In this document: piece by piece, positions 2,503 through 26,865 of the stretch
Layout of the letters: each line of letters starts with the position of its first letter
Position numbering within the stretch: position 1 is the first letter of the stretch
UHGV virus genome: UHGV-0267347
Reading direction: 5' to 3' (one strand)
DNA: 27,205 bases
Source: a virus
Translations under genes and position numbers: made by a program
The notes under the pieces: generated by a model
The model's input: only the letters and a program-made list of their open reading frames with translations
The model's database searches: none
What the model was told of the DNA's origin: nothing

Positions 2503-2505
2503 AAA

Positions 2506-3006: not shown

Positions 3007-3178
3007 AAGCTGCGTGGCGAAGTAACCACTCTTAACACAGTAATCTAGAAAATGCGGACCGCGTTAGTGATTTTTATCTGTTTTTCCATTATTTTTTTGC
3101 CACACAGCTTAAAACGAAAAATAAAGCAGGCGTTGCCAAACCTCACGGTGACAGTTGGATTAGAATGAGGACATACTT

Positions 3179-4198: not shown

Positions 4199-4212
4199 TC
4201 GGGCTTCAATAA

Positions 4213-4605: not shown

Positions 4606-4607
4606 AA

Positions 4608-5603: not shown

Positions 5604-5604
5604 C

Positions 5605-6414: not shown

Positions 6415-6433
6415 ACTTCGTTTCTCCTTTTGC

Positions 6434-6823: not shown

Positions 6824-7146
6824 ACTTTCAGGTCCCTCTCATGTAACCAGTGGGTTGCACGCAGCCTTGCGTTTTCCTCACCGGCAAGCAGTGCGCGGAT
6901 AATCCCAACCGCCTCGCTGTCGTCGTCCTTCACCACGGTATGAAGCGTTATCCCCCGGGCCACGCCACGCTTTATCGTGATGACGCCTTTTTTCTCCAGT
7001 GCGCGAAGATGCTCCACCGCTGCATTCACTGAACGGTATCCCAGCATGGTTGCCACCTCCTGATTAGTTGGCGGGAAGCCACGTTCTTGCTGGTAAGAAA
7101 TCAGCATATCCAGCACCTGCTGCTGGCATTGAGTTAACGTCGTCAT
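6820..7146 (-). CDS. LexA N-terminal DNA-binding-domain protein (no S24 peptidase domain)
   Basis: QQQVLDMLISYQQERGFPPTNQEVATMLGYRSVNAAVEHLRALEKKGVI closely mirrors the LexA winged-HTH (compare LexA [33 protein letters not shown]); the protein ends after about 108 aa, with no Ser-Lys peptidase module. Confidence 0.6.
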   Translation of the reverse strand: MTTLTQCQQQVLDMLISYQQERGFPPTNQEVATMLGYRSVNAAVEHLRALEKKGVITIKRGVARGITLHTVVKDDDSEAVGIIRALLAGEENARLRATHWLHERDLKV

Positions 7147-7796
7147 GCCGCCATCTCCCTGACCAGTTTTTCCGCCTGCTGGCGAACCTGCACCAGAAAC
7201 GCCTCACCACATGCCTCAAGTTCATCGCGCCCGATGTAGCTGATTGCCGGTCCCTTCCAGGTCTTGTCGAAAACAGCAATAGCACCAGCGAAGAAAGCGC
7301 CTGTCGGCACCTGCTTCTCATCCTTCGGGATAAACCAGGCAGGCAGTTCAAAACCAATACGCCCGCGAATAAAAGCAATATGGTCCGCATCTTCCGGCCA
7401 CCACACTTCGCTGGTGGCAGCTTTGATCAGGAAAACATAGCGCCCACCCTTATCACGCATGGCACTGGCATGTTTCATGATGTAACGCATGCCGGTGATG
7501 TATTGCCCCTCATGCTGACTGGCGCGGCTGTATGGGGGATTACCAAAGGCAGCCCCTTTAAGCTCCGCAAGACGTTCTGACCAGTCATGCGCCAGCGCGT
7601 TGTCTTCCGCCGTGTAATACGCAGCACATTTGGCGTTATCACCGTCAGTGAACAGATCCAGAACAAACGGGCCAAACAGGGTGTTAATTCCCCAGAAAAT
7701 GTTGTCCGGCGTGCGCCACTGATCACCCACTTCCTTCAGTTCATGGGCTGGTTTGTTCCGCAGTTCCACCAGCTCCTGGCAATATTTATTACTCAT
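7143..7796 (-). CDS. phage DNA N6-adenine methyltransferase (Dam-like)
   Basis: GNPPY motif (AAFGNPPYSRAS); start placed at ATG 7796, which overlaps the upstream stop in a TAATG arrangement (translational coupling). Confidence 0.85.
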   Translation of the reverse strand: MSNKYCQELVELRNKPAHELKEVGDQWRTPDNIFWGINTLFGPFVLDLFTDGDNAKCAAYYTAEDNALAHDWSERLAELKGAAFGNPPYSRASQHEGQYITGMRYIMKHASAMRDKGGRYVFLIKAATSEVWWPEDADHIAFIRGRIGFELPAWFIPKDEKQVPTGAFFAGAIAVFDKTWKGPAISYIGRDELEACGEAFLVQVRQQAEKLVREMAA

Positions 7797-8290
7797 TAAG
7801 CCCCCACGTAATTCCCTGACAGATACCACTCATCACCCGATACAGCGCGCTTGCTGCTTTTCCGTAAACACTGCTCACGACGCGCCAGAAAATTGTTTCG
7901 TTCTGGCTGGGAGTGGCTTTCACGGAATGCCGCCATCCACACCGTTGCAGCACGACGGTATAAGCCCCTGGACTCCAGTTCTTCAGCCTGGCGGGTCAGG
8001 CACAAAATCTCCCGCGGGTCGTTAGTGCTGACATAGAAATTGCGCACAGGTCTGGTTTCACGAACTGGTTGCGGTTCCGCCTCCTGCGCTCTCTCAGTCA
8101 GGCGCGGGAAATGTCTGCGTGTATCCCCTTCACAACGGTGAGCCACACGCCCACTCTGACGTAACTTGCTTGCTGACTGCAGAACGCGCTGCCGTGAGTA
8201 ACCTGCAAAAGCATCCGCAATGTCTCCGGAAGTACACCCCGGATGGGCTTCAATGTATTTCTGAACTTCATTCAAAAGACTCATGATCAC
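7796..8290 (-). CDS. PerC-family-like transcriptional regulator
   Basis: C-terminal AEELESRGLYRRAATVWMAAF resembles the PerC signature (AE.LE..GLWRRAA..W) as recalled; N-terminal region HTH-like. Confidence 0.5.
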   Translation of the reverse strand: MIMSLLNEVQKYIEAHPGCTSGDIADAFAGYSRQRVLQSASKLRQSGRVAHRCEGDTRRHFPRLTERAQEAEPQPVRETRPVRNFYVSTNDPREILCLTRQAEELESRGLYRRAATVWMAAFRESHSQPERNNFLARREQCLRKSSKRAVSGDEWYLSGNYVGA

Positions 8291-9228
8291 CCCCTGAATC
8301 CTGCCGGGATCTGGCTGTAGTCCACGTTGTCGTAACTGGCTTTGAAGTACGGGTCTTCGCGTTTTTCTGTGTACGTGCTGACGGACGGCGATAAGCGCAG
8401 GGAAAGCTCATCCCATTTTTCCCGCAGCTTCGACGGGCTGAGCACGTTACGGCACCAGAACGGATCGCGGCTGACGCGGCTGTACATCTCGCAGATTTGT
8501 TTGTGAGTACGACCATCCTGCACACACATCAGGCGAATTTCGTTTGCCCAGGCTGTCCAGTTCGGTTCTTTGGGACGAACCACCTCGCCGTCACATTCGG
8601 CGGCTTGCTCGTACAGGGCGATGATTTTTTTCCAGAGCCACTGTGCGCAGGTCAAATCATCCTGCGTTCCCCACTGGCGCTTTTTAGGGCTGAATACAAC
8701 CGCATCAGGATGGCGAGTTAAAAAATCCTGTTCATCCGTCTGCGTGTCCGGTTGCGAAGCGTCCGGACGAGAAGGTTTTTTATCTGACGGATCATGTTTT
8801 GATTTTACTGACGGATCCCCGCCAGATTCTGACGGGTGAAAACCCGCTTTTTTGCCAGATTTCGACGCATCAAATTTTGACGGGTCAGATTTTGATGCGT
8901 CAGATTTTGACGGGTCAGAATCTGACAGTTGAGAAAATGCCGCTGCCTGAAGCTTCGCAACGTTAAGCTGATAAACATTCGACGCATTGCGGTTACCCTG
9001 GCGACGCGCCTTACGCGTTAACCAGCCTTCTGCTTCCAGCCGTGCGATAGCCGTCCTGACGGTACTCATCCCCGCGCCAATCTGACGGGCAATAGTTTCA
9101 ATTGATGGCCAGCACACACCTTCGTCATTACTGAAATCAGCTAGGCGGGCCATAATTGCCACGCTGGATAATTTCATGCCTGATGCAGCGCAACCATCCC
9201 ATACATAGCCGGTTAATTTAGTGCTCAT
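8287..9228 (-). CDS. phage replication initiation protein (N-terminal wHTH, conserved phage C-terminal domain) with embedded iterons
   Basis: N-terminus SVAIMARLADFSNDEGVCWPSIETIARQIGAGMSTVRTAIARLEAEGWL (HTH); low-complexity linker SDPSKSDASKSDPSKFDASKS encoded by DNA repeats; C-terminus with conserved Trp/Cys pattern (CAQWLWKKI...WTAWANEIRLM). Confidence 0.8.
   Translation of the reverse strand: MSTKLTGYVWDGCAASGMKLSSVAIMARLADFSNDEGVCWPSIETIARQIGAGMSTVRTAIARLEAEGWLTRKARRQGNRNASNVYQLNVAKLQAAAFSQLSDSDPSKSDASKSDPSKFDASKSGKKAGFHPSESGGDPSVKSKHDPSDKKPSRPDASQPDTQTDEQDFLTRHPDAVVFSPKKRQWGTQDDLTCAQWLWKKIIALYEQAAECDGEVVRPKEPNWTAWANEIRLMCVQDGRTHKQICEMYSRVSRDPFWCRNVLSPSKLREKWDELSLRLSPSVSTYTEKREDPYFKASYDNVDYSQIPAGFRG
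8777..8935. repeat. iteron array (candidate origin of replication) inside the replication gene
   Basis: At least seven direct repeats of about 15 bp, consensus near GATTTTGACGGGTCA (gattttgacgggtca, gattttgatgcgtca, gattttgacgggtca, gaatctgacagttga, ...), as for ori-lambda inside gene O. Confidence 0.6.
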
Positions 9229-9237
9229 GACCGACCT

Positions 9238-9576
9238 CTATTTCCCTGAATTTACGACGAAACTGTTCGAGCGGGCTGAAGCACTCATGCTCATAGCCTT
9301 CGCGGAGGTAGATAACTCGTTGTGTTTCCGGCTCCCAACGAATGACTCTGACGGGCACTCCGTAGTGATCTTTGAACCAGCGGTTAACTTGTCGCAAAGG
9401 ACTGTCTCCTTCTGCCGGTTGAAATCACCCACAGCCCACTCAGCAAAGCTGTGGGTTACAATTTCCCTGTCACCTGGTACATTAACTGCATAGCAATACT
9501 CCACCTTCGCTTTTCCACCCGGTACAGGAAGCGCAATCAGTTGCGAGCGACGGTAGTGTGTTGTTAAACTGTTCAT
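9238..9576 (-). CDS. hypothetical protein (112 aa)
   Basis: Only long frame on the operon strand between the CII-like gene and the replication gene; low-complexity C-terminus; a competing plus-strand ORF (9221..9493) exists. Confidence 0.4.
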
Positions 9577-10181
9577 GCGTTAGTTTCTCCACAGTCACGA
9601 CACGCCACGGCGCCCGGAGCTGCACACTCGCGGGCGTCATTACTTTCTGAAATGCAAAAGATTTTGTAGACCAGTGCTGCATGCTCCTGCAGCTTCGAAA
9701 TTGAGAGATACAGCTCGTCGTTAATTGCTGTCTTCTCATGCGGTTCCACCACACCGTCTTCGATTGCCGAACGAATCTGTCTGGAATAACTGCCAATCTG
9801 TTCAATGACTTCCAGCAGGCGCTGGTTAATATCGGCGTTGTCCACATCCTCGACGTCAGGAAGAGACACAAAGACGCCATTTGCAGACTGCGCCACAGCG
9901 TCAGCAATGAAGTGAGTTCCACCAGCACGTTGCAAAATCATTGCCCATCCCAGCGGGAAAATCTGATCGCCATCGGCACGAAGGCGGTTAAATAATGCGT
10001 TTTCTGTTACATCCAGCCAGTCAGCTGCTTCAGCGTAACCACCCGGCAACGCTGCGATAGTTTTTCTGACAGCTTTCACGTACCACTCAGGCTGTTTTTC
10101 TACTTTCCAGTGATGCTTACCCACGGTTAGCCTCATCGTTCTGTGGTTTCTGTTAATCGATTTATCCATTAGATTTTTCAT
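9573..10181 (-). CDS. CII/YdaT-like regulatory protein
   Basis: Start chosen at ATG 10181 (MKNLMDKS...), just past the Cro-like stop; position directly after cro and before the replication genes is that of cII/ydaT-type regulators; no catalytic motif. Confidence 0.55.
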
Positions 10182-10362
10182 AAAGCTCAGGTTTAAATGG
10201 CAACCGTCCGCAAGTTCTATATGCAGCTTCTGCTGCACGTCCTTTTGGAATTAACTGGCCCGGACGGTTTCGCCACTGATAAACGGCTTCAGTTGTTATG
10301 CCAAAAAAAGCAGCAACTTTCTCAATACTGCCGAAGTAGCTTTCGATATCGTCAGTTGTCAT
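10162..10362 (-). CDS. cro: Cro-like HTH protein (YdaS-like)
   Basis: 66 aa, HTH with YQW...LIP pattern; divergent from the CI gene across an operator region. Confidence 0.75.
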   Translation of the reverse strand: MTTDDIESYFGSIEKVAAFFGITTEAVYQWRNRPGQLIPKGRAAEAAYRTCGRLPFKPELYEKSNG

Positions 10363-10459
10363 ACGCCCTCCAAACTAAGTTTTATTAGATGCTAATTACA
10401 AATCTATCTTTGGTCAATAAAAACTAAGATTACTTAGCAATTCAAGAAATGGTGCTCCT
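10363..10459. promoter_or_regulatory. OR-like divergent promoter/operator region
   Basis: Two 14-bp palindromes built on CTAAG half-sites: CTAAGTTTTATTAG (10375-10388) and CTAAGATTACTTAG (10424-10437), between divergent cro-like and cI starts. Confidence 0.5.
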
Positions 10460-11086
10460 ATGGAAACGGTTGGTCAGCGTATAAAAGCTCTGAGAAGAGT
10501 TACCGGAACGTCCCAGAAAGAATTGGGTAAATTTTGTGGAGTAAGCGACGTTGCTGTGGGGTACTGGGAGAAAGACATCAATACCCCTGGTGGGGAGGCA
10601 CTTTCGAAATTAGCGAAGTTCTTCAATACGTCAATAGATTACATTCTTTATGGTGCTGAGTTTGAAGGCAAACTCGTCACAAACATGCGCAGAGTTCCTG
10701 TAATATCGTGGGTTCAGGCTGGGCAGTTTACTGAGTGCAGGGCAGCAGAAGTGTTTAGTGAAGTGGACAAGTGGGTAGATACATCATTAAAGATTGGTGA
10801 TAACTCATTTGCATTAGAGGTTAAAGGTGACTCCATGACTAACCCTAATGGCCTCCCAACAATACCAGAAGGCGCAACAGTGATTGTAGATCCAGATGCA
10901 GAACCTCGTCATGGAAAAATAGTCATCGCTCGACTTGATGGAACAAACGAAGCTACAGTAAAAAAATTAGTCATCGATGGCCCTCAAAAGTTTTTAGTGC
11001 CATTAAATCCTCGGTATCCCAACATCCCTATCAATGGTAATTGCCTTATCATTGGTGTAGTCAAAGGAGTTCAATACGAACTCTAA
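10460..11086 (+). CDS. cI: CI-type repressor (XRE HTH + S24 LexA-like peptidase)
   Basis: N-terminal HTH (QKELGKFCGVSDVAVGYWEKD), C-terminal GDSM serine motif (VKGDSMTNP) and downstream Lys (VKKLVIDG), characteristic of autocleaving phage repressors. Confidence 0.9.
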   Translation: METVGQRIKALRRVTGTSQKELGKFCGVSDVAVGYWEKDINTPGGEALSKLAKFFNTSIDYILYGAEFEGKLVTNMRRVPVISWVQAGQFTECRAAEVFSEVDKWVDTSLKIGDNSFALEVKGDSMTNPNGLPTIPEGATVIVDPDAEPRHGKIVIARLDGTNEATVKKLVIDGPQKFLVPLNPRYPNIPINGNCLIIGVVKGVQYEL

Positions 11087-11098
11087 GACCTCTCTTCT

Positions 11099-11166
11099 CT
11101 AACTAAGGCACCGAACTAAGAAAAGTTTGGTGTTTTCTCTTGCCATAATAACTAAGTTAAGTTAGA
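11099..11166. promoter_or_regulatory. OL/pL-like operator region (CTAAG repeats)
   Basis: CTAAG at 11103, 11116 and 11152 plus CTAAGTTAAGTTAG, immediately downstream of the cI stop; mirrors the OR half-sites. Confidence 0.4.
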
Positions 11167-11251
11167 TTTTATATCAAAGATAACGAACAGGCAGGACGCC
11201 CACGAAGTAGCCGCCTGGGGCATATGAAGTCCAGGATGATTCGTTAGCAAC

Positions 11252-11275
11252 AAAAAAGCGCCCTACAGGACGCTT
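11252..11275 (-). terminator. intrinsic terminator (minus-strand sense)
   Basis: aagcgccc-taca-ggacgctt hairpin preceded on the plus strand by AAAAAA, giving stem + UUUUUU for a leftward transcript; would shield cI from the antisense gene at 11512-11946. Confidence 0.45.
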
Positions 11276-11333
11276 AGCTCTTTAACAATCTGGTCCCCAT
11301 CAACAAGTAACTGATAACTTGAGGAGGTGTGAA

Positions 11334-11540
11334 ATGCACAAAACAGAACCCAAAATCGTCGCGCCTGGCTACACAGATGAGGAAATTTATGAGTGGATGA
11401 CAAAGAAGCTGGCAGCTATAAACCAGCTTCGTGAAGTGCTGTCTTATCGACAGGAAACAATAGACTCCTTAAAAAAACTGGATCAGGAAATCACGGTTTT
11501 ATCACAGGATGTTACTTTAGATATTGTGCAGACAAATTAG
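11334..11540 (+). CDS. hypothetical small protein (68 aa), first ORF after the pL-like region
   Basis: ATG at 11334 preceded by GAGGAGGTG SD; coiled-coil-like sequence; overlaps the 3' end of the opposite-strand 144-aa ORF, so it is uncertain. Confidence 0.35.
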   Translation: MHKTEPKIVAPGYTDEEIYEWMTKKLAAINQLREVLSYRQETIDSLKKLDQEITVLSQDVTLDIVQTN

Positions 11541-11946
11541 GATCCCATTCATTTTCGTCAAAATCATCAAAGTGATGAATTTGTGATCTCCAGTCTCGAT
11601 AATCTAAAAATTTCTGGGCGGTTACGCTTATTTTATCAAGTGTGAGTTCATCCTGAATTGAAAGAAGAAGTTCATCAAATTTCATCTCATTAATCTGTTT
11701 TGGCATCCAGTGATGCTTCATCAGAATAAGGTGAACCAGAGCCTTTTTCCCATTCAACTGATTATAGGGAGTGCCGAATTTCTTCCGGTGCTCATGTAAG
11801 ACAAGGTCCAGAAGAGTAAGTAATGTTGCCCTTGATTCAACTTTGCTTATTTCGACTGATGACACTACCCCACTGATTTCAATGCCCCGATACTTTCCAA
11901 CATTTTCACAGTGGGATTTGTACAGCGTGTAGATATTACCGGACAT
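11512..11946 (-). CDS. hypothetical protein (144 aa), antisense to the early-left operon
   Basis: ORF track; AT-rich; intrinsic terminator on the same strand about 240 bp downstream; no motif recognised. Confidence 0.5.
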   Translation of the reverse strand: MSGNIYTLYKSHCENVGKYRGIEISGVVSSVEISKVESRATLLTLLDLVLHEHRKKFGTPYNQLNGKKALVHLILMKHHWMPKQINEMKFDELLLSIQDELTLDKISVTAQKFLDYRDWRSQIHHFDDFDENEWDPNLSAQYLK

Positions 11947-12059
11947 TTCTTTTCCTTTTGCGTTGTTGGGGATAACCAGATTAACCGAATCCTTGTTGTT
12001 GGGGAATAACCAGGTCCACCTCGCCTGATGTGGCTAAAAGCAGGCACATAACAGCTAAG

Positions 12060-12440
12060 TATTTTCAACCAGAGAGAATCCTTAGCGTTGTGGTGAATGC
12101 GGCTCAGCGCACGCGGGTTAAGGTTGAGGCTGACAGTCGACCTTCTGTGGATACCCACCCGCCTGGTGTGCAACCTTCGCCAGGCACCGGGAGGCACCCG
12201 GCACCACAACTTTATGCTGTGTGTAGTCCTGGCGGTACCAGTTTGTACCCTTGCTTCCGGCTGGTACCGTCCTTTTTACAAAACAGAGAAGAGCATCACC
12301 GGACGACGGGCTCATAACCCAATCCATCCGGGCGGCTGCCACCGCAGGTGTTCTTCTCTGTTTTGTGGAGAAACTAACCGCCCCTACGGGGGCATTTATG
12401 GAAATGTAATTGACTCAATAATCGCCGGACGGTGAGGGCT
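12060..12440. other. GC-rich, highly structured non-coding element (candidate structured RNA or regulatory DNA)
   Basis: No convincing ORF (three mutually overlapping Pro/Arg/Gly-rich frames); multiple inverted repeats: gcctgg/ccaggc (12160-12185), cggtaccag/ctggtaccg (12233-12269, 9-bp stem), aaacagagaaga/tcttctctgttt (12280-12362) enclosing further GC stems. Confidence 0.35.
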
Positions 12441-12490
12441 TCCTTTTACCCGAATTCAGCGCGGTGCAGCGCATATACGTGGAGAACAAA

Positions 12491-13027
12491 ATGTCATTTA
12501 TTAAAACTTTTTCCGGGAAGCATTTTTATTATGACAGGATAAATAAAGACGACATCGTTATTAACGATATCGCGGTTTCCCTTTCAAATATCTGTCGCTT
12601 TGCAGGACATCTTTCACACTTCTACAGTGTCGCCCAACATGCGGTGCTTTGCAGCCAGCTGGTGCCGCAGGAATTTGCTTTTGAAGCTTTAATGCATGAT
12701 GCAACAGAAGCATATTGCCAGGACATCCCCGCACCACTGAAACGACTTCTTCCTGACTATAAACGGATGGAAGAAAAAATAGACGCCGTAATCCGTGAGA
12801 AATACGGGTTACCTCCTGTTATGAGCACGCCAGTGAAATATGCCGATCTCATTATGCTGGCAACCGAACGCCGCGATCTCGGGCTTGATGATGGCTCTTT
12901 CTGGCCTGTGCTGGAAGGTATCCCGGCAACAGAGATGTTCAACGTGATTCCACTGGCTCCAGGCCATGCCTACGGGATGTTTATGGAACGCTTTAACGAA
13001 TTATCGGAGTTACGCAAATGCGCATGA
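12491..13027 (+). CDS. HD-domain phosphohydrolase (YfbR-like 5'-deoxynucleotidase family)
   Basis: AQHAVL ... ALMHDATEAYCQDIP matches the H...HD...E..D metal-binding signature of YfbR-type HD hydrolases; ATG 12491 with GGAGAA SD. Confidence 0.75.
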   Translation: MSFIKTFSGKHFYYDRINKDDIVINDIAVSLSNICRFAGHLSHFYSVAQHAVLCSQLVPQEFAFEALMHDATEAYCQDIPAPLKRLLPDYKRMEEKIDAVIREKYGLPPVMSTPVKYADLIMLATERRDLGLDDGSFWPVLEGIPATEMFNVIPLAPGHAYGMFMERFNELSELRKCA

Positions 13028-13380
13028 ATGTTTTCGAAATGGAAGGGTTTCTTCGTGGGAGATGTGTACCGCGAGATCTGAAAGTGAATGAAACGGATGC
13101 TGAATACCTGGTGCGTAAATTCGATGCGCTTGAAGCTAAATGTGCAGCACAGGAAAACAAAGTAATACCAGTGTCAACTGAACTGCCACCAGCAAATGAA
13201 AGTGTTTTGTTATTCGATGCTAACGGAGAAGGCTGGCTAATTGGCTGGCGTTCTCTCTGGTACACCTGGGGACAAAAAGAAACCGGAGAATGGCAGTGGA
13301 CATTTCAGGTCGGGGACCTTGAAAACGTCAATATCACTCACTGGGCAGTAATGCCAAAAGCACCGGAGGCTGGAGCATAA
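13018..13380 (+). CDS. hypothetical phage protein (120 aa, Trp-rich)
   Basis: ORF overlapping the stop of the upstream gene; WLIGWRSLWYTWGQKETGEWQW motif; function unknown. Confidence 0.55.
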   Translation: MRMNVFEMEGFLRGRCVPRDLKVNETDAEYLVRKFDALEAKCAAQENKVIPVSTELPPANESVLLFDANGEGWLIGWRSLWYTWGQKETGEWQWTFQVGDLENVNITHWAVMPKAPEAGA

Positions 13381-13685
13381 TGACCACTTTTACCGACAAA
13401 GAACTGATTAAAGAAATTAAAGAGCGTATCAGCAGCCTTGACGTGCGAGACGATATTGAGCGCCGTGCTTATGAAATCGCACTCCTATCTCTGGAAGTAG
13501 AACCAGATGAACGCGAAGCTTATGAATTATTCATGGAAAAGCGTTTTGGTGACTTAGTAGATCGTCGGAGAGCAAAAAACGGCGATAACGAATACATGGC
13601 ATGGGATATGACTCTCGGTTGGATCGTCTGGCAGCAACGAGCTGGTATCCATTTCTCAACAATGTCACAGCAAGAGGTGAAATAA
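13380..13685 (+). CDS. hypothetical phage protein (101 aa)
   Basis: ATGA overlap with the upstream gene, acidic helical protein; function unknown. Confidence 0.55.
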   Translation: MTTFTDKELIKEIKERISSLDVRDDIERRAYEIALLSLEVEPDEREAYELFMEKRFGDLVDRRRAKNGDNEYMAWDMTLGWIVWQQRAGIHFSTMSQQEVK

Positions 13686-14035
13686 TGGAGCCATACAGCC
13701 TCACACTCGATGAGGCCTGTCATTTTCTCAAGATATCCAGACCGACTGCCATTAACTGGATACGCACAGGGCGTCTTCAGGCAACACGCAAAGATCCCAC
13801 TAAGAATAAATCTCCTTACCTCACAACACGACAAGCCTGCATTGCGGCTCTTCAGTCTCCGCTGCATACTGTCCAGGTGAGCGCGGGTGATGGCATAACA
13901 GAGGAAAGAAAATGTCACTCTTCCGCAGAGGTGAAATATGGTACGCCAGTTTCACATTGCCGAACGGTAAAAGATTTAAACAGTCTCTTGGAACAAAGGA
14001 CAAAAGGCAGGCGACAGAACTCCATGACAAGCTAA
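13685..14035 (+). CDS. xis: excisionase-like HTH DNA-binding protein
   Basis: Internal ATG 13685 ([31 protein letters not shown]): Xis/AlpA-type HTH directly upstream of and overlapping int, as in lambda xis-int. Confidence 0.55.
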
Positions 14036-15075
14036 AGGCTGAAGCATGGCGGGTCAGCAAACTTGGTGAAATACCTGATATAACGTTCGAGGAAGCGTGT
14101 GTCAGGTGGCTTGAAGAGAAAGCACATAAAAAATCACTGGACGATGACAAAAGCCGGATCGGATTCTGGCTTCAACATTTCGCAGGAATGCAACTAAGAG
14201 ACATTACTGAATCAAAAATTTATTCAGCAATGCAGAAAATGACGAACCGGCGTCATGAGGAAAACTGGAAACTCAGGGCAGAAGCATGCAGAAAAAAAGG
14301 GAAACCTGTTCCAGAATACACGCCAAAACCAGCGTCCGTTGCAACGAAGGCTACGCATCTTTCATTTATAAAGGCCCTACTAAGAGCCGCAGAGCGTGAA
14401 TGGAAAATGCTGGATAAGGCACCAATTATTAAAGTGCCTCAACCAAAGAATAAACGGATCCGCTGGCTGGAGCCCCATGAAGCACAAAGGCTGATTGATG
14501 AATGTCCGGAGCCATTAAAGTCTGTTGTTGAATTTGCACTGGCAACAGGCTTAAGACGCTCGAACATCATCAACCTTGAATGGCAACAAATAGATATGCA
14601 GCGCCGGGTGGCATGGATAAACCCGGAAGAGAGTAAATCAAACCGCGCAATTGGCGTTGCGCTGAATGATACTGCATGTCGCGTATTGAAAAAACAAATC
14701 GGGAATCATCACCGTTGGGTATTTGTGTACAAGGAAAGCTGTACCAAACCAGACGGAACGAAAGCGCCAACAGTAAGGAAGATGCGGTATGACGCAAACA
14801 CAGCCTGGAAAGCGGCGCTGAGACGGGCTGGTATTGATGATTTCAGATTTCACGACTTGAGACACACCTGGGCAAGTTGGCTGGTTCAAGCCGGAGTCCC
14901 GTTGTCAGTGTTACAGGAAATGGGAGGCTGGGAGTCTATCGAAATGGTTCGTCGATATGCTCACCTTGCACCTAATCACCTTACCGAACACGCACGGCAA
15001 ATAGACTCGATCCTGAACCCATCGGTCCCAAATTTGTCCCAGTCAAAAAATAAGGAAGGTACTAATGATGTGTAA
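13912..15075 (+). CDS. int: tyrosine integrase
   Basis: 387 aa; C-terminal catalytic signature R...HDLRHTWAS...GGW...VRRYAHL (R-H-x-x-R-Y), transcribed toward the att core. Confidence 0.95.
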
Positions 15076-15089
15076 CTTATTGATTTAAA

Positions 15090-15135
15090 TGGTGCCGATA
15101 ATAGGAGTCGAACCTACGACCTTCGCATTACGAAT
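15090..15135 (-). other. thrW: att core: 3' 46 nt of a tRNA-Thr(CGU) gene (anticodon loop to CCA); partial tRNA, 5' half absent
   Basis: Minus-strand sense AUUCGUAAUGCGAAGGUCGUAGGUUCGACUCCUAUUAUCGGCACCA: anticodon loop UUCGUAA (CGU), T-arm GGUUCGACUCC, acceptor 3' strand + CCA; matches recalled thrW 3' half; the expected complementary 5' acceptor strand is missing upstream. Confidence 0.7.
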
Positions 15136-15439
15136 TATAAGAATCCGCTTCTAATTCAAAGTATTACCCCATCAACACTGCGCTCACACGTCCCACCACA
15201 TCAAAACATGTAAAGCCTTGCAAGCCATTGTGAGGCCTTATGTGTCTCAGTTTTGTCCCACCTTGTATTATGACTTGCATAGCCAATGAAGATAAATGTG
15301 ACGACAAACGGCGCAGCAGTCTTCTTTTCCTTCATACTTTCCCCACCCAGCATGCATACCTTCTACCATAACTGTAGTTAATGTCTGTTATGAGCGAGGA
15401 GCGGACATTGCTAACAGCGTTCTGTGCGAATCAAGCAGG

Positions 15440-16858
15440 TCAGTCAAATAATTTATCGTCTGCCTCATAAGTTTCCTGAAACGTGAGGCTATTTGCATTA
15501 GGAACTGGATCATCTGCGTGTTGAATAATGGTTTGGCTTTTTAAAATGCTTTGCTTGAAAAAGCGTTTGCAAATTATCTCACCGTTAACTGGAAGCCAAT
15601 GCGTGGCCTCTGGAAATAGCGTAGAATTTATAGGGTTTTCCGCGTTTGGGTTATGAAAAATTTCAATTTCTGAAGTCCATGGCTCATAACTATAGGGTTC
15701 CCAAAGACGACGATATTGGTCACTGGCTACATCCATACTGAAGGGGATGCCACGTAAGGCTCCCGCCGAGTCATTAGCGAACTCACCAATCCTTATGTAC
15801 CGGTAGCCTTTGATCAAGGCGCCGGAAGAAACAGGTACTCTGCTCAGCTTGGATAAAGTCGCAGAATTAGAAAAAATAACCGCCGAGAGAGCAATGTTAT
15901 CGTGTGAATTAAACAAACCAGCACGGATTTTGGGGTCGCTTTTGAGGCAGTCGACAGTTTCTGCTACAGCCACAACCTTCCCATCTATTTCTTTTTCTCT
16001 TCCATAAAATCCATAGAGATAGGTAATTAGAGCCTCACGGCTCCACATCATTGAACCGGGAGCGTGAAAGTCCGCGATAGCAATGGCAAACGGCTTTCCT
16101 TCGACATGAGTGAGACTAGTGTAATTCTTGCGCAGTTTATTCCTTAGGGTCCGCGCATAACGTTCAGCCGCAATTCCCGATACCCTGTCTTGTCGGTTTA
16201 AAGGAAACGTCAGAGGTTCAGCCCTGGCATGGTCGTAACGGTCCGATGGATTAACTGTCACAGCTTCAATCCAGGCTTCTCCACCTGACCTGTTTATTAC
16301 GTGAAAATCAGGAGAGGGGTACTCCTGAGTGACTAACAACCCCTGTTCACGGAAACTGGCCAGGAGCATGGCTTCCCAAATACGTGTATGAAAGTTATCA
16401 GTCTGGCACTCTCTTGCCCAGTGAGTATCCGGATTTGGCATTGCAAGATACAATTGATTAAGCATCCATGCGCCAGGTGCTCTACAAGGATGTCCAAGTA
16501 GTTTGAATATGTTACTTGGTTGTCTACCTTCAACATCCCAAAGCGGTGCGCGCCTGCGTGTACCCGGAGGCAAAGGGACGCGACTCGCAGATTCATCGCA
16601 TGCCTCACGTATAATTGTGAAAGCCTCTTCTTCACTATATGAATCTGACTCCCAGCGTAGCACTGCCCATACATCGTCCTCACGACGCCGCATTATAAGA
16701 ATGCCATGCTTTCCGCTGTGACAATTACGTGTCAGTGCACAGACTGTGACATGATCATGACTACCCCAAGCGCTAACTGGAGGATCATCCCCAAATCCCA
16801 GACCTCGGGGAAGCGATAAGGCATATACATCGAATACACAAGACGGAATGGGAGTCAT
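15440..16858 (-). CDS. hypothetical protein (472 aa), unknown function
   Basis: Long ORF, no motif recognised; 5' third more GC-rich than the rest; directly downstream of the 156-aa ORF on the same strand. Confidence 0.65.
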   Translation of the reverse strand: MTPIPSCVFDVYALSLPRGLGFGDDPPVSAWGSHDHVTVCALTRNCHSGKHGILIMRRREDDVWAVLRWESDSYSEEEAFTIIREACDESASRVPLPPGTRRRAPLWDVEGRQPSNIFKLLGHPCRAPGAWMLNQLYLAMPNPDTHWARECQTDNFHTRIWEAMLLASFREQGLLVTQEYPSPDFHVINRSGGEAWIEAVTVNPSDRYDHARAEPLTFPLNRQDRVSGIAAERYARTLRNKLRKNYTSLTHVEGKPFAIAIADFHAPGSMMWSREALITYLYGFYGREKEIDGKVVAVAETVDCLKSDPKIRAGLFNSHDNIALSAVIFSNSATLSKLSRVPVSSGALIKGYRYIRIGEFANDSAGALRGIPFSMDVASDQYRRLWEPYSYEPWTSEIEIFHNPNAENPINSTLFPEATHWLPVNGEIICKRFFKQSILKSQTIIQHADDPVPNANSLTFQETYEADDKLFD

Positions 16859-16962
16859 CGAAAAGTCTCACTTAATGAGCCTAAAGATAGCGGCAAGCAG
16901 ACCATAAAAGACCGGTCCATAAGTAGGTACCTTCTGCATTCGTTAGCGATTTTTTGACTTTG

Positions 16963-17433
16963 CTAGCAGTCAAACCCAACAATTAACTCTTCAGTAATCT
17001 CACTTAAGGAGACTATGCCTTTATATCCAGTTTCAACGTATGGGACCACCCTATCACTCCATGCCTCTTCTGCTTTCCATGCAGTCCAGGGGATCAATTT
17101 ATCGAATTTGCTTTCATGAAGAAATAGTATTGAAATTCTATCATTAGGCACATGTTTTATAAACTGAGTTGGAAAACATTTATAGGCATGTTCTTCCCAA
17201 TGCTTAGTCCCATAACATCTGTAGTCAAAAAAGGAAACACAGTTACGCCGTCTGAAAAAACCATTTGATGAGTTTCCAAATCTTGACATCTGCAATAATT
17301 CCGAGTTTGGGATCAAAGCGCCGGACTGTTTTATGAGAGACATATTATTTTCAGGCGTAACATGGAACACTCTTCCTAAAAGAGCAGGTAATATATCATT
17401 GTGAGATATGATTTTGAGTTGACTGACTTTCAT
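16963..17433 (-). CDS. hypothetical protein (156 aa), unknown function
   Basis: AT-rich ORF, no motif recognised; probable first gene of a two-gene operon with 15440..16858. Confidence 0.55.
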   Translation of the reverse strand: MKVSQLKIISHNDILPALLGRVFHVTPENNMSLIKQSGALIPNSELLQMSRFGNSSNGFFRRRNCVSFFDYRCYGTKHWEEHAYKCFPTQFIKHVPNDRISILFLHESKFDKLIPWTAWKAEEAWSDRVVPYVETGYKGIVSLSEITEELIVGFDC

Positions 17434-17588
17434 ATATCTTGACCATCGAAATATGGATTAGTGCAATACGTTAACATAGCATAATGTCACTAGCGTCTCC
17501 TATTGGCACATAGCAGTCCTAGAGACACTGGCGTAAAGCCATGGAGGATCGGTGGGAGGAGGCGCTAATCCTTTCATACAAAAAATAT

Positions 17589-17784: not shown

Positions 17785-17808
17785 AAAAAAGGCACCCGCA
17801 GGTGCCTT
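17785..17808 (-). terminator. intrinsic terminator (minus-strand sense)
   Basis: aggcacc-cgca-ggtgcct hairpin preceded by AAAAAA on the plus strand (stem + U6 for a leftward transcript). Confidence 0.45.
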
Positions 17809-17869
17809 AAATACTACCCCTTAGCAGCGCACTAAAAATGCCCACGCCTCGTACCCGTAATCATGAGCA

Positions 17870-17974
17870 TCAAGGACTTTTTTTGATTTCCCACGCACCT
17901 TGCGGTAACGGCAGAAAACCCAACGGAACCCTTTGGGCGCCGCTTTTGAAGCAATTGATTTCAAACCCATTCAT
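17870..17974 (-). CDS. candidate small ORF (34 aa) with canonical SD
   Basis: TAAGGAGGTG then 4 nt then ATG; MNGFEINCFKSGAQRVPLGFLPLPQGAWEIKKSP; lies between the ImmA-like gene and a terminator; not in the ORF track (below its size cut-off). Confidence 0.3.
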   Translation of the reverse strand: MNGFEINCFKSGAQRVPLGFLPLPQGAWEIKKSP

Positions 17975-18093: not shown

Positions 18094-18129
18094 CCCCTTG
18101 CACTGGTTGGCGCCAAGCAAGGGGTTTTT
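18094..18129 (+). terminator. intrinsic terminator hairpin (strong in plus sense) abutting the ImmA-like stop codon
   Basis: ccccttgc-(15 nt loop)-gcaagggg followed by TTTTT. Confidence 0.5.
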
Positions 18130-18649
18130 ACATTTTGTCTAGCTGATAACGCGCTGCCACTAATGAAACTCCGCATGCCTCAGCAACATCCTCAGCCGTC
18201 ATACCTTTTAAAATACTGGCATGCATAGCTGGCACTAATAACTCACCACTAAAACATTTAGCTTGCCATTCACTACTCTCAAAAGGGCGGATTTTTACCC
18301 CTGGGGCAGAACGAGCAAATGCGATGTTCCTGTGCATAAGAAGATGACCCAGTTCATGCGCGGCAGTCATCCTATCTCGCCCTACCCCATTCAAAGCGCC
18401 TTCGTAAATGTCTTCGCGCAGAATCAATAAATGTTCCTGTGGGTATGTAAGACCATGCGTCTCTCCCATTTCTTTCATACCACCAATGTGGAACTCAAAA
18501 TCCGGGATCAACTGAGGCAATGCGAACTCAATTACCTCCATTACAGGGAATTTAAGCCCAGTAATACCAAATGCGCTCCGCAGAGATCTGACGATAGAAC
18601 GTATTGATTCACGATTCTGCGGAGGTACACGATAATCTTGTCCGCTCAA
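18128..18649 (-). CDS. ImmA/IrrE-family zinc metallopeptidase (COG2856-like)
   Basis: HEXXH motif in AAHELGHLLMH; 173 aa; immediately downstream of an XRE HTH gene. Confidence 0.85.
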   Translation of the reverse strand: MSGQDYRVPPQNRESIRSIVRSLRSAFGITGLKFPVMEVIEFALPQLIPDFEFHIGGMKEMGETHGLTYPQEHLLILREDIYEGALNGVGRDRMTAAHELGHLLMHRNIAFARSAPGVKIRPFESSEWQAKCFSGELLVPAMHASILKGMTAEDVAEACGVSLVAARYQLDKM

Positions 18650-18657
18650 GCCGCCTC

Positions 18658-19017
18658 CTACTGCTGTTTTCGATTCAAAATCTGTCGTAAATTACGGAAG
18701 TCTTCTTCATTTAACTCATCAAAACTACGAGCGAACGCAATTGCGACTTCACGAGCGTGGCCATTCTTACCTGACAAGCTGATCTCTACTGACTGCTGAG
18801 AGTCACGAGCTGCACTGATAAGCTTTTCTTTTTGTTTTTCATCCGCATTAAAATAGCTAATGATGCTATCAAGCACGGGCTTAGTGACCGCCCTTTTACC
18901 AGTTTCGATCGCTGAAAGATAAGACGAGGTCATGCCCATAGCCTCAGCCATGCTTTTAAGCGTAAGCCCCAAGTCTATGCGCATTTTTCTTACTGTCTTA
19001 CCAAACGGCGTTAACAT
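18658..19017 (-). CDS. XRE-family HTH transcriptional regulator
   Basis: N-terminal HTH (KMRIDLGLTLKSMAEAMGMTSSYLSAIETGKR); 119 aa; paired with the metallopeptidase gene. Confidence 0.85.
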   Translation of the reverse strand: MLTPFGKTVRKMRIDLGLTLKSMAEAMGMTSSYLSAIETGKRAVTKPVLDSIISYFNADEKQKEKLISAARDSQQSVEISLSGKNGHAREVAIAFARSFDELNEEDFRNLRQILNRKQQ

Positions 19018-19549: not shown

Positions 19550-20419
<870 letters not shown>

Positions 20420-22578: not shown

Positions 22579-23360
22579 GCGGCCCTCACAATATAATTAA
22601 AGGCGATGTTACGTGGACGATTTTCATTTGCTGTTGGAACAACATTTGCCGCCGAGAAGTGAACATCTTGTCGGATTTTTCGGTCATTAGCGTATGTCAT
22701 AGATACGTTGATGTTATTCCGGACTGAGGTACCTCCGTAAAAAGCACCACTCACACTTTGAACATCAACAATTGCATTAATTTCGCTGTTTACGCGCAAC
22801 TGACCAAAACCGCCAGTAATGTTTCGAATAGCATCTCCTTGCGCTGAAAGCAGAGTTCGCCCACTATCCACACCACGTTCATCATCCCAGCCACGAATAA
22901 ACTCACCACGTAAATCAGGCAATTTATTTGTCGGATAAGCCTTTGCCAGTTCCGGGTATTCTTCAGCAGAAAAAGCGGCACCGTTGCATTTCAGCCAGCC
23001 TGTTGGCGGAGTGGCTGAAGGCCACGGAACAGGGACACCAACAGGTAATGCAGAGCCTTCTCCCAAACCAAGGTTTTCGAGAGCCGTTTTCACCGTGCCA
23101 TCCGATTTGATATCGCCAAACGGATTCTTGCGGCTTAACAGCAGCGCGCGAAGCGCGGTAAGTAGCTGGTCGTGCCGCCCCTTCTCCAGGCTGGCACCGG
23201 ACGCCTCCACAACGCTGCAAAGCTCCTCCTGCAACATGTCAAAGTAGTCATCATCCAGATCGGTGGCAGGCGTGCCGGTCTGGGGGTTACCACGGGTAAA
23301 ACCGTTCTTACCCGCGCCGAACTTATCCTTCTGCGCGGTTTTCGTGTCTATACGATGCAT
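22575..23360 (-). CDS. tail fibre protein: constant N-terminus (~98 aa) fused to invertible variable C-terminus
   Basis: Crossover site 2 lies in frame inside the gene; arrangement Sc-Sv-tfa / tfa'-Sv' / invertase matches the Mu G, P1 C and e14 P segments. Confidence 0.8.
23058..23083. other. 26-bp invertase crossover site (pix/gix-like), site 2, inside the tail-fibre gene
   Basis: Plus-sense TTCTCCCAAACC-AA-GGTTTTCGAGAG, imperfect palindrome; encodes the conserved LGLGE junction of the tail fibre. Confidence 0.7.
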
Positions 23361-23363
23361 GGA

Positions 23364-23948
23364 TTACTCCGGATATTTAAAAATTACGTAGGTATGCGAC
23401 GGGCAGAGTTTGTTAAGCACACATTCGACAACTGTGTCGCCCCAGATACGCAGTGCGGAATCACAGGGATCGCCACATGTCATCCAGGTGGTGTTGGTGG
23501 CGGCTGGCATGTTGACCTGCCAGTAATACCGCCATTCAGGCGCGTTCACAGCGTCAGTACAGGCCGATGAGCAGGTGAACGTGCTTTTGTCGTATCGCGT
23601 GATGGTGGCATCTGGTCTGCCCAGGGCAGCAAGCTGTGCAAGATAAAAATCCTCGTTGATGCCGCCCGCCAGGTTAACCTTCGCATCCAGCCGTTGCTGA
23701 CGCTGGCGAAGGGTCTGTGTCCCTGCGGGAATACATTCATCCGGCAGACCGCACAGACGCTCCCAGCGGTTTATCAGTTCAGTGGTGGTGCGCGGATCCA
23801 GCTCCCGCATCAGGGCATCCGCACGCTGATGAGCACGAGTTAATGAAGGTGCCGCACCGGCAATCGCCGGATCGCTGGCTGACCACGCCGGACCGGGGGG
23901 CAACAGTGCCGACAACAGACGGATGTAATCATCGTTTGTCACGTCCAT
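23364..23948 (-). CDS. YmfQ-like tail/baseplate protein (DUF2313, Mu gp48-like)
   Basis: 194 aa, same length and gene position as recalled e14 YmfQ, between the J-like gene and the tail fibre. Confidence 0.75.
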
Positions 23949-24997
23949 GAAATCGTCCCCAGAACCGCCAGTTCATTTTTTGCAATGGAGATATTGTCCG
24001 CCGGTGCAAGCAACTGATGGCTGTATTCCCCGTTCGCACCGGAAATCGCCTCACTGATACGCGACACCTTCAGTTCTCCCTGCGGATAACCATCACGCAG
24101 CAGGAACGAACGCAACTCCGCGGTGATGGCGGCTCGTATTTCCGGTGTATCCGGCGTAACGCGGATATGAAAATCCACCGTATGTGCCACCGGCCTGAAC
24201 ACATACAAATCAGAGCCTGCCACCGGAGCCAGTGGCCCGATATGTTGTCTTGCCGCCGTTTCCGTTGATTCTTCCGGAATGGGATTAATCAGGTCGCTGC
24301 TGGCAATCATCACACCGACAGTCCCCGTTCCCATCCAGTGACGGTATGTCCATGCGCGGGTAATGCCGGGCACTTCTTTAGCCCAGACGACATAGTCCCC
24401 GTCAGCCCCGCCCTGCGGCGTCCAGTAATACCGCTCAATGACGCGGGCGCGCCACGTTTCCAGCTCTTCAGTATCAAATCCGCCTGTCAGGGTGTCAGCC
24501 ACACCGGAAGACGGCAGACCATTAACCGGCGTGACCAGGATTAATGCCGTACCGTCGTCAGCGTTACCGACCGCGCCTGCACTTGAGCAGGCGATCGGCA
24601 CGCGCAGGACACCACCGGAGCTGGTTGCATCGGCAGTTGCCGTGTACTGCACCAGGTCATCGCGCTGAATAACACTCCCGGCGGTCACCTTCAGGCCATC
24701 GCTGACACCTTCCCAGCGCATATACCCGCTGGCAGCCGTGGCCCCCTTGCGCGGACACCGTTTCATCGCAGCATGTCGCGCCAGCCAGGACTCATCGCAC
24801 AAGTCAGGCAACATGTTCATTGCCAGATAATCGATGTACCCGTAAACCGTATGCAGCGCCGCCGCATACACCATTGCCCGCACGTCTTCATCCATGCGCC
24901 GGAGCGTGTCGCTGACGTCCAGCCTGGCGAATAAATCGTTACGGAGCATACTGATATTTTCTGCCAGCGTCGGACGCTGAAATTCACTGTCCGCCAT
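23939..24997 (-). CDS. baseplate J-like protein (Mu gp47 / P2 gpJ family)
   Basis: 352 aa; position and size within the baseplate module; call from recalled homology only. Confidence 0.8.
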
Positions 24998-25412
24998 GCG
25001 TTATCGCACTCCACAGATCATCAAAAGAAATCATTACCGGTCCGTCACGACGCCAGAGAGTGATACTGTTACCCAGTTCATTAATCCCGGTGCGGCGGAT
25101 ATCCAGATCAATACGGGACACCACGCCATCATCAATCATCCATTGCAGGCATTCGCGGATATACCCCCTTACCGTCTGCACCAGCTGATTGGTCAGTTTG
25201 CTGCGCTGAAGCAGCCACAGTCGGGAGCCGTAACGGTCATTCTGTACCGCAGGCCAGGTATCCCCCCACCATCCCATCGGGACGTCGGCATTGTCATCAG
25301 GTTCAGCCCGCCGCCAGGTGAACATGGAAATCACCACGGCACGGGTCAGCGGATCCAGCGGTGCGCTGGCGCAGGTGCGTTTACCGTTCACCGTCAGCCA
25401 CAGTTCCATCAT
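24984..25412 (-). CDS. baseplate protein (Mu gp46-like / GPW-gp25 family)
   Basis: 142 aa, between the V-like and J-like genes, as gpW/gp46 in P2- and Mu-type baseplate modules. Confidence 0.65.
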   Translation of the reverse strand: MMELWLTVNGKRTCASAPLDPLTRAVVISMFTWRRAEPDDNADVPMGWWGDTWPAVQNDRYGSRLWLLQRSKLTNQLVQTVRGYIRECLQWMIDDGVVSRIDLDIRRTGINELGNSITLWRRDGPVMISFDDLWSAITHGGQ

Positions 25413-25957
25413 GCCTCCATCGCTTTATCAGGTTTGTCGGTGTTACTGCCCTGACCGTTCTCTCTGTGACGATGCCAGTTATAGGCAAGCCTCATCGCTG
25501 ACATGGTGGTGCCGCTGGAGTCGCACAGGTCTTTCACCTGTCCGGTCACTTCCAGGTCCATTTCAAAACGAGCCTTAGGCGCATTGCGAAACGTGATCGT
25601 TTTCCCTGCACCGTCCACCACGATCCCCGCCCGGGTCAGCGTCACGGACTGCCCCTGATCGTCATAGACAGCCACCTCACCCGTCTGCAGCCCTTTCAGG
25701 CGGTAGCGCCGGTCCGACACCGTAACAACCACCGCATGAGAACGGTCACCATCCGGAAACAACACCACCGCTTCCGCACCGCTGTTTGCCCTTGCGGTAA
25801 AACCGTAGGGTTCAAGATGTTCAACCCCGGCTTTGGGTTCACCGGCAATCAGGGACACATCCACGGTCTGACATTTCGTGGCGGCACTGATGCTTTTCAC
25901 CACCGCCCGCCCAATCAGGCCGAGGAGTTGTCGCTGTATGGTTTCAATCGCCTTCAT
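25409..25957 (-). CDS. baseplate spike/assembly protein V (Mu gp45-like)
   Basis: 182 aa; ATGA overlap with the downstream gene; position in the module; call from recalled homology only. Confidence 0.75.
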   Translation of the reverse strand: MKAIETIQRQLLGLIGRAVVKSISAATKCQTVDVSLIAGEPKAGVEHLEPYGFTARANSGAEAVVLFPDGDRSHAVVVTVSDRRYRLKGLQTGEVAVYDDQGQSVTLTRAGIVVDGAGKTITFRNAPKARFEMDLEVTGQVKDLCDSSGTTMSAMRLAYNWHRHRENGQGSNTDKPDKAMEA

Positions 25958-26859
25958 CAGAACGGGTCCTCCTGTACTCTGGCTTTTTTCTTTTTCCGCG
26001 CGCCGGGAGCTTCGGGTTCAGGCAGATAAGCATCAGGTGGGCCGACACGGATTTCCGTCAGGGTGCCATTCTGGTCCTGAGTAAACGTGACTTCCGAGAC
26101 AAGCAGTTCGGTATTGTCGAAACCACAGACCGGATCGAAGACAATCACCCGCTGGTTGGGCTGCCACAGCGTACCGTTACCCTGTCGCCAGCCCTGCACC
26201 ACATAGGTGGTTTCATCCGTCCGCGCCGCCCGTTGCCGGGCTTCAAAGTCCGCACGGGCAATACAGCCTGCCCCCGTAGCCTGCCCTGGCTGCCTGATAT
26301 ACATCGGACGGTAACGGGCAATAAATGCGTCCTCTGTGCGGGCCCGCAGCGCGGTGGTGGTGGCCTCACCGAAATCATCGTCGTTTCCGGCACGCTGCCC
26401 CGCCACCTGGTAAACTGAAAACCGCTCCCGGATACTCTTCTCCGTATCACAGGAAAGGATATTTTCCCCGAGTACCAGCGCAGTATGTGCCCGCGTTGAG
26501 CCAATACCGCCAATCACCAGCCTGCCGTGCGGGTCGTCGTAAGCCAGTGCCTGCTGCTGACCGAGTATTTTGTTGATTACCTCAATCACCGTTTCACCGT
26601 GATCAGGCTGAACATCAGGAATAACACCCGACGGCGCACCGCTGTTCACCACCTCAATGCCGAAAGGCGCAGCAAGCGCCTGCGCAATCTGCACCAGCGA
26701 GCGTCCGTTAAACTGTGTCGGTTCGGCTGCACAGTCAATCAGGTCAGCCGTCAGACTGCGTCCGGCAATACCGGTACTGACCGAACGGGCATCGTAACGA
26801 ACGGGCGTCGCCTCCACCCAGCCGGTGATCACCAGCTCATCACCAATCAGTACCTCCAC
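25957..26859 (-). CDS. Mu gp44-like tail/baseplate hub protein (P2 gpD family)
   Basis: 300 aa; N-terminal L.(V/I).G.....GW motif shared with the N-terminus of the plus-strand ORF at 27109; weak SD, so the start is uncertain. Confidence 0.65.
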   Translation of the reverse strand: MEVLIGDELVITGWVEATPVRYDARSVSTGIAGRSLTADLIDCAAEPTQFNGRSLVQIAQALAAPFGIEVVNSGAPSGVIPDVQPDHGETVIEVINKILGQQQALAYDDPHGRLVIGGIGSTRAHTALVLGENILSCDTEKSIRERFSVYQVAGQRAGNDDDFGEATTTALRARTEDAFIARYRPMYIRQPGQATGAGCIARADFEARQRAARTDETTYVVQGWRQGNGTLWQPNQRVIVFDPVCGFDNTELLVSEVTFTQDQNGTLTEIRVGPPDAYLPEPEAPGARKKKKARVQEDPF

Positions 26860-26865
26860 TTTTGA

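Follow-up and report, generated by a model that had tools for sequence, protein, structure and literature searches.

The UHGV virus genome UHGV-0267347, a stretch of 27,205 nucleotides that is referred to here in its whole length as the window, carries on its minus strand two co-directional open reading frames (ORFs) that travel together as a small cassette of prophage cargo. The upstream member (156 aa, 16963..17433; RefSeq WP_000868823.1, ‘hypothetical protein’) is predicted to have an ADP-ribosyltransferase (ART) fold resembling that of DarT, while the downstream member (472 aa, 15440..16858) is assigned by sequence to the anti-phage nuclease family PD-T7-1. Both ORFs are intact and are separated by a spacer of 104 nt (16859..16962). 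The coordinates, the co-directional layout and the gap of about 100 bp given in the original prediction, which was made from the window's letters alone, proved exact. That prediction had also taken the pair to be AT-rich, which holds for the 156-aa gene (37.6% GC) and not for the 472-aa gene (46.8%), the latter lying near the window mean of 48.5%; the adjacent integrase has 46.6%. The two genes thus differ by 9 points in GC content. An 18-nt near-repeat (16 of 18 positions identical) is found immediately 5′ of the nuclease start codon (16866-16883) and again within the 3′-terminal part of the ART gene (16998-17015); it could be due to chance or be a trace of the junction that joined both genes.

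No motif had been assigned to either protein in the original prediction, a statement that does not stand for the larger one. The 472-aa protein matches the PADLOC model of PD-T7-1 (PDLC04073) with an E-value of 2.8e-69 and 232 bits, residues 113-446 aligning with positions 120-447 of the 452-position hidden Markov model (HMM), and that of PD-T7-5 (PDLC04110) with an E-value of 2.6e-35 over residues 129-417. It also matches phrog_8571 in PHROGs; searches of Pfam and NCBIfam gave no match. More than 820 clusters of homologues were found, mostly of 465-480 aa and with a query coverage of 96-100%. Since two close relatives of the same family (L050 and P0157) align over HMM positions 4-446 and 28-449 of 452, the N-terminal domain is common to PD-T7-1 and the 472-aa protein. 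On the strength of these alignments, the protein is a full-length member of an experimentally validated anti-phage family, in which it forms a divergent subfamily.

PD-T7-1 was recovered from ECOR46 as a single coding sequence of ∼450 aa labelled ‘Nuclease’; cloned alone with its native promoter, it protects against T7 and more strongly against T-even phages (Vassallo et al. 2022, PMC9519451). A native allele has been retested in NILS69 (PMC12409345), and protection of E. coli against T7-like and T-even phages is demonstrated for the ECOR46 and NILS69 alleles only (PMC9519451, PMC12409345). The window protein shares with PD-T7-1 its organization as a single polypeptide of ∼450-470 aa, a significant HMM match with relatives that align over their full length, a PD-(D/E)xK core predicted between N- and C-terminal domains, and a habitat in E. 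coli prophages and defence islands. It differs in its divergence (its match of 232 bits begins only at HMM position 120) and in the conserved mini-ART gene attached upstream in its lineage. PD-T7-5, likewise a single-gene ‘nuclease’ system, shares with the window protein its nuclease core as well as a portion of the C-terminal region, but is shorter (∼390 aa; 346-position model), lacks the N-terminal domain and gives a weaker match than PD-T7-1.

The AlphaFold2 model of the 472-aa protein (mean predicted local distance difference test, pLDDT, 89.9) comprises three confidently modelled domains: an N-terminal α+β domain that is cystatin-like by fold (residues ∼1-90, 16589..16858), a PD-(D/E)xK-like nuclease core (residues ∼116-283, 16010..16513) and a β-rich C-terminal domain (residues ∼284-447, 15518..16009), delimited by secondary structure and pLDDT and lying within the PD-T7-1 HMM match, which runs to position 447 of 452. 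Candidate metal-site residues in the core are E162, D184 and E198 (codons 16373-16375, 16307-16309 and 16265-16267), all invariant in the nuclease alignment. The canonical lysine of PD-(D/E)xK enzymes is missing from the E-A-V-T strand; the invariant K241 may replace it in the putative metal site. A profile search against PDB sequences gave chance matches only, so that no solved structure of a relative is detectable by sequence.

The RefSeq/PGAP model of this gene, WP_000934335.1, comprises only the last 341 codons (15440-16465) and leaves the N-terminal domain outside the gene. The possibility that the 341-aa model is right and the 472-aa ORF an artefact or a fusion was considered and is ruled out by the conserved N-terminus, the full-length homologues and the confident model of the N-terminal domain. 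With over 100 homologues of 465-480 aa, from Pantoea, Yersinia, Burkholderia, Cupriavidus, Xanthomonas, Stenotrophomonas and Pseudomonas, the alignment spans 96-100% of the 472-aa query, and residues 1-131 contain many positions invariant in the alignment and are modelled with pLDDT values of 88-97. The RefSeq start is placed 131 codons too late, an error that drops a conserved domain. Because of this late start, insertion sequences (IS) of the IS3 type at nuclease codon ∼24 went unflagged as disruptions in four genomes. It had been proposed that degradation of the 472-aa ORF to a pseudogene would refute the reading of the pair as a defence system; the window copy is intact, and it is its relatives that are often IS-disrupted or frameshifted.

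The small protein has no significant match in Pfam, NCBIfam, PHROGs or PADLOC. That it is a genuine gene product follows from 38 clusters of ∼155-aa homologues with 35-99% identity, to which an exhaustive profile search added a further 665 representative clusters at 50% identity. Its AlphaFold model, built with 28 homologues, reaches a pLDDT of 93.8 and a predicted template modelling score of 0.89. Structural comparison matches it to DarT entries (7yk3, score 7.8; 7omu, 7.3; 8baq, 6.9; 7omv, 6.5) and to CC0527/DUF952 (7.0), the A subunit of heat-labile enterotoxin (6.8), pertussis toxin S1 (6.8), the Rhs toxin TreX (6.5) and Tpt1 (6.4); a library of viral structures yields weak matches to a Tpt1-like protein and a DarT, both from phages. 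An alignment of 47 sequences, which extends to 26% identity and averages 17% identity per column, has three columns without any variation, and no more: H24, D70 and E134 (codons 17362-17364, 17224-17226 and 17032-17034); G20, F23, N43, C65, V66, S67, P131 and G136 come close to invariance. The model places H24 within strand 22-27 and S67-D70 within strand 65-70, and strand 134-138 begins with E134; in ARTs, the three motifs sit on the equivalent strands. As judged from the model, the protein has an ADP-ribosyltransferase fold, closest to that of DarT, and it is read as a probably active H-type ART.

DarT, the ART of the DarTG toxin-antitoxin systems, modifies single-stranded DNA. Several features distinguish the window protein from it: its size of 156 aa instead of ∼210 aa; scores below the DarT thresholds of both Pfam and PADLOC; the invariance of D70, which is not a named DarT feature; and the lack of an adjoining macrodomain or NADAR antidote of the DarG type, in the window as in ∼45 other loci. 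The Pfam DarT profile (PF14487) gives at best E-values of 0.085-0.11 for the family, with 12.7 bits against a cut-off of 22.5 and over HMM positions 1-24 only, and the PADLOC DarT model an E-value of 0.0074 for one of the 47 family members. All of the sub-threshold Pfam and PADLOC matches, to DarT and to DUF7002, fall on the F-H-x-T strand. Because it remains below the DarT threshold and has no DarG partner, the protein is placed outside DarT as a related enzyme. It differs from Tpt1/KptA in that the R-H-R-R catalytic tetrad of Tpt1 is not conserved in a family in which only H24, D70 and E134 are invariant; unlike Tpt1/KptA and DUF952 (CC0527, PDB 2jqn), the window protein has no RNA-repair gene context. 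The family profile gave only chance matches to PDB sequences. One local similarity, between R-x-VSFFDYR-x-YGTK (residues 60-80, ∼17194-17256) and residues 229-249 of PDB 9qbp, a SPARDA DUF4365-APAZ protein, was rejected as chance (E∼1 over 21 residues).

No description of the 156-aa family came up when the literature was searched with both RefSeq accessions and for small DarT-like ARTs that stand alone. What is new at this locus is the small protein, an unannotated variant within the ART superfamily. Among the best 150 representatives of the family nearly all are stand-alone proteins of ∼150-200 aa, and the family extends through Proteobacteria and beyond, in defence islands and prophage cargo slots. 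An all-against-all BLAST of neighbours in ∼60 loci revealed no recurrent partner or antidote beyond near-identical loci, and a Pfam scan of 20 genes adjoining ART relatives no Macro, NADAR or ARH domain. Since no macrodomain, NADAR or ARH protein occurs among the neighbours, the ART is tolerated without a linked antidote. The neighbours of ART relatives are mostly conflict genes: a type II restriction-modification system, the P2-type hotspot downstream of gpD, integrases at prophage ends, PIN/Phd, DUF2971, Shedu SduA_C, an OLD-type ATPase-TOPRIM protein, DUF4062, a DndB-like protein, a MoxR ATPase, SNase, DUF6602, DUF5677 and an eCIS-core (DUF4157) toxin. This company supports a putative role of the family in defence or in conflict between elements. 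In some loci (L062/L063, 305-1582; L023, 4491-4955; L015, 5664-6845; L019/L024, 5622-7619; L076/L080), the mini-ART lies within 0-170 nt of nuclease or toxin genes of the DUF6602, SNase, Shedu SduA_C, OLD-type ATPase-TOPRIM and eCIS-core/DUF4157 types. Such proximity to diverse nucleases and toxins may represent a modular association.

Whether the two families occur together was examined from the side of each gene, with ∼60 small-gene loci from genomes, viral contigs and metagenomes and HMM searches of six-frame ORFs. Starting from the ART, the nuclease was found only where the ART is at least 87% identical at the amino acid level, namely in the E. coli cassette and in Pantoea-type loci (L034-L036, L054). 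The paired lineage is therefore shallow, with at least 87% amino acid identity in the ART and at least 92% in the nuclease. In ∼45 more distant loci, with ART identities of 77% or less, the nuclease is missing and none of the neighbours is recurrent; these loci include an E. coli locus beside another integrase, a Morganella-type locus, E. ruysiae, Citrobacter, Thiodiazotropha, Pseudoalteromonas, Pseudomonas, Planctomycetota and many metagenomic contigs. Starting from the nuclease, no ART neighbour was found for homologues with 79%, 75%, 71% and 38-40% identity, the first belonging to a conjugative element of Pantoea ananatis and the third to a Yersinia defence island. These ART-less homologues, together with a metagenomic copy (L082) whose nuclease remains intact after an IS destroyed the ART, indicate that the nuclease has no obligatory partner.

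The original prediction had singled out the pair as a candidate for an undescribed system, a proposal that is not supported. PD-T7-1 is a described single-gene system (Vassallo 2022, Table S2), and the confinement of the pairing to one shallow lineage speaks against a functional two-gene unit. Failure of the genes to co-occur in other genomes had been named beforehand as one of the observations that would refute the proposal, and this is largely what the two-way survey found. Nor is the conserved co-occurrence of type II toxin-antitoxin systems seen here, each gene having been inactivated while the other stays intact.

The whole cassette measures ∼2.1 kb (about 15392-17515) and consists of the two genes with a leader and a tail. 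At its 5′ boundary, the leader of ∼80 nt (17434..17515) is delimited by homology that begins at ∼17515 in the Qin context and ∼80 nt upstream of the ATG in Pantoea-type copies; it presumably holds the promoter. The 3′ boundary is given by a 48-nt tail (15392..15439), where the match ends in H9 and H10. No terminator fold is present in this tail. It shares 89.6% identity with non-coding DNA of phage P2 (OU784750.1, 16989-17035), a similarity that may point to an earlier residence of the cassette, or of its end, in a P2-like phage. Apart from this P2-like tail, the cassette is absent from 50,697 deposited phage genomes. A search for flanking repeats that could mobilize it yielded only short two-copy matches, judged to be chance. 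The spacer between the genes contains no terminator-like site and its RNA fold has a z-score of -0.23; since a terminator is lacking there, a single transcript covering both genes from a promoter in the leader is plausible.

Copies of the cassette in thrW prophages and in a Qin-like prophage, the latter between hokD and a DUF977 gene, share 99.9-100% identity. Comparison of the E. coli and Pantoea-type copies gives identities of 92.4% (nucleotides) and 87.3% (amino acids) for the ART, 93.0% and 92.4% for the nuclease, and 85.7% for the spacer, whose length is the same. Codon changes number 58 synonymous and 32 non-synonymous in the nuclease, against 11 and 20 in the ART; these counts point to purifying selection on the nuclease and to faster evolution of the ART at the protein level. 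The cassette occurs in 10 of 5,426 complete E. coli genomes. Both genes are present in all 10, and the ART is intact in each, whereas the nuclease is interrupted in half of them, by IS3 after nt ∼70 (four genomes) or by IS911 at nt 805 (one). Frameshifts affect the nuclease in the Pantoea loci L034 and L035. The reverse situation is seen in L082, in which the IS removed all but the last 22 ART codons and left a 472-aa nuclease. The lopsided interruption of the nuclease may reflect its fitness cost.

The explanation that best accommodates these observations, and which is probably correct, is that of two separable cargo genes, recently joined and spread as a cassette, one a defence nuclease of the PD-T7-1 type and the other an orphan DarT-like mini-ART with a role of its own. 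On this explanation, a cassette of ∼2.1 kb would sit in the attachment (att)-proximal slot of an SfII/SfIV-like thrW prophage, its two genes having been joined once and recently, being probably co-transcribed from a promoter in the 80-nt leader and spreading as a unit among Enterobacterales, with neither needing the other. The nuclease, like other members of its family, would act alone in E. coli against T7-like and T-even phages, its PD-(D/E)xK-type core, gated by the N- and C-terminal domains, cutting nucleic acid during infection. The mini-ART would be an NAD+-dependent enzyme that ADP-ribosylates a target, for which the analogy with DarT makes nucleic acid the likeliest candidate, and would constitute a second, independent conflict gene, for which phage defence or superinfection exclusion is likelier than counter-defence. 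Read in this way, the large gene adds little beyond a further member of a catalogued defence family, although its analysis puts right a start site that RefSeq misplaces systematically, at the cost of a conserved domain of 131 aa. The useful lead is the small gene, with its compact DarT-like fold and invariant H/D/E site. If active, it would be a single-gene ART new to the catalogue of defence or counter-defence genes, and would raise the questions of how a DarT-like enzyme is tolerated without an antitoxin and of what it modifies.

A genuine two-component system, in which the ART serves as a sensor or an antitoxin-like brake on the nuclease or marks phage DNA for it, is unlikely. It would account for the co-directional genes without a terminator between them, for the order and spacing kept between E. 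coli and Pantoea-type copies, for the movement of the entire cassette into thrW-prophage, Qin-like and Pantoea contexts, and for the presence of the partner in 10/10 complete E. coli genomes having either gene. Loss of the nuclease far more often than of the ART (5/10) also resembles the loss of a toxin with retention of its antitoxin, and ART relatives often lie directly beside other nucleases (SNase, DUF6602, Shedu, OLD). Yet the great majority of members of each family occur away from the other, a single gene suffices in canonical PD-T7-1, the nuclease of L082 stays intact with only 22 ART codons left, and the GC contents of the two genes differ by the 9 points noted above. An invariant, catalytic-looking triad in a family that occurs mostly away from the nuclease further argues against a dedicated antitoxin role.

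Another broader idea, also rather unlikely, combines such cooperation with a view of the small protein as the founder of a widespread family of antidote-less mini-ARTs (the 665 clusters at 50% identity), acting as portable conflict effectors with varied neighbours. If it were true, these neighbours would be both nucleases (PD-T7-1, SNase, DUF6602, Shedu, OLD) and toxins, and in this cassette the mini-ART would work together with the PD-T7-1-type nuclease, gating cleavage, for instance, by ADP-ribosylating either the invading DNA or the nuclease itself.

Somewhat less probable still is that the mini-ART is a counter-defence or host-modifying gene of the prophage that merely lies beside a defence gene. 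Comparable ARTs are Alt, ModA and ModB of phage T4 and the ART-type anti-CRISPR AcrIF11. The small size of the protein, its phage-borne location beside integrases and in prophage accessory slots, and the lack of an antidote gene, as expected if the target is inessential to the lysogen, would be in line with such a function, as would the excess of non-synonymous over synonymous changes (20 vs 11), which fits an arms-race protein.

It is very unlikely that the fold belongs to a protein other than a macromolecule-modifying toxin, be it Arr-like, an NADase, RNA 2′-phosphotransferase-like or a non-catalytic binding or immunity protein. Tolerance without any antidote, the presence of Tpt1 and DUF952/CC0527 among the top fold matches, and the minimal size of the Arr family, which is similar to that of the 156-aa protein, point in this direction. 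In L076/L080 and L010/L081, moreover, the gene directly follows toxin genes (eCIS-core/DUF4157, PIN), in the position of an immunity gene. Finally, decaying, functionless cargo hitch-hiking in a thrW prophage graveyard would explain the rarity of the cassette (10/5,426), the IS in half of the E. coli carriers and the frameshifted nuclease in Pantoea, but is most improbable in view of the two intact window ORFs, the purifying selection on the nuclease (58 synonymous vs 32 non-synonymous changes) and the wide distribution of both families with conserved lengths and invariant residues.

By origin the window is E. coli DNA, and it comes from the prophage hotspot at thrW / pao-yagP. Positions 15090..15135 match exactly, over 46 nt, the 3′ end of the tRNA-Thr gene thrW, and ARAGORN detected no complete tRNA in the window; the tRNA-derived att core of the original prediction is thereby upheld. 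This fragment lies between an SfIV-like integrase (13912-15075; Pfam Phage_integrase, E-value 3e-48) and the cargo slot. Since the integrase abuts the thrW fragment, the cassette lies in the accessory slot next to att of a second prophage remnant arranged in tandem. The early region of SfII/SfIV-like phages, a group that integrates at thrW, is matched by positions 1-13900 with 96-97% identity, and their baseplate and tail genes are matched to the same degree by positions 22874-26882. Two SfII/SfIV-like segments (1-15135, early region and integrase; 22874-26882, baseplate and tail) thus flank the cargo region, which indicates tandem or nested thrW prophages. The defence genes here occupy the place where Shigella phages carry serotype-conversion genes. 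The view of the pair as horizontally acquired, defence-related cargo at a prophage end is borne out by the membership of the large gene in the validated PD-T7-1 family and by the presence, within the same slot, of PD-T4-3 and a capH/capP-like regulator pair.

The latter pair encodes a helix-turn-helix (HTH) protein of 119 aa and an ImmA/IrrE M78 peptidase of 173 aa (18128-19017, minus strand). Downstream of the peptidase gene lies a basic ORF of 49 aa (17821-17970, minus strand; WP_023277296.1, hypothetical), which has no family match and ends at an intrinsic terminator (17789..17808, minus strand) with an 8-bp stem containing five GC pairs followed by TTTTTGT. Just upstream of the cassette and on the same strand, the pair recalls CapH/CapP-regulated operons. 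This likeness is offset by the strong terminator, which ends the capH/capP-like unit and separates it from the ART-nuclease cassette, and by separate module boundaries, as the cassette occurs without the pair in H5-H10 and the pair without the cassette in H11-H19. Control of the ART-nuclease pair by these regulators is consequently ruled out. They face instead the GIY-YIG defence gene PD-T4-3 (19595-20419, plus strand; PADLOC E-value 2e-140), which is their likelier target. An HTH/M78 pair divergent from a defence gene is the classic CapH/CapP layout, and the arrangement suggests damage-inducible control of PD-T4-3.

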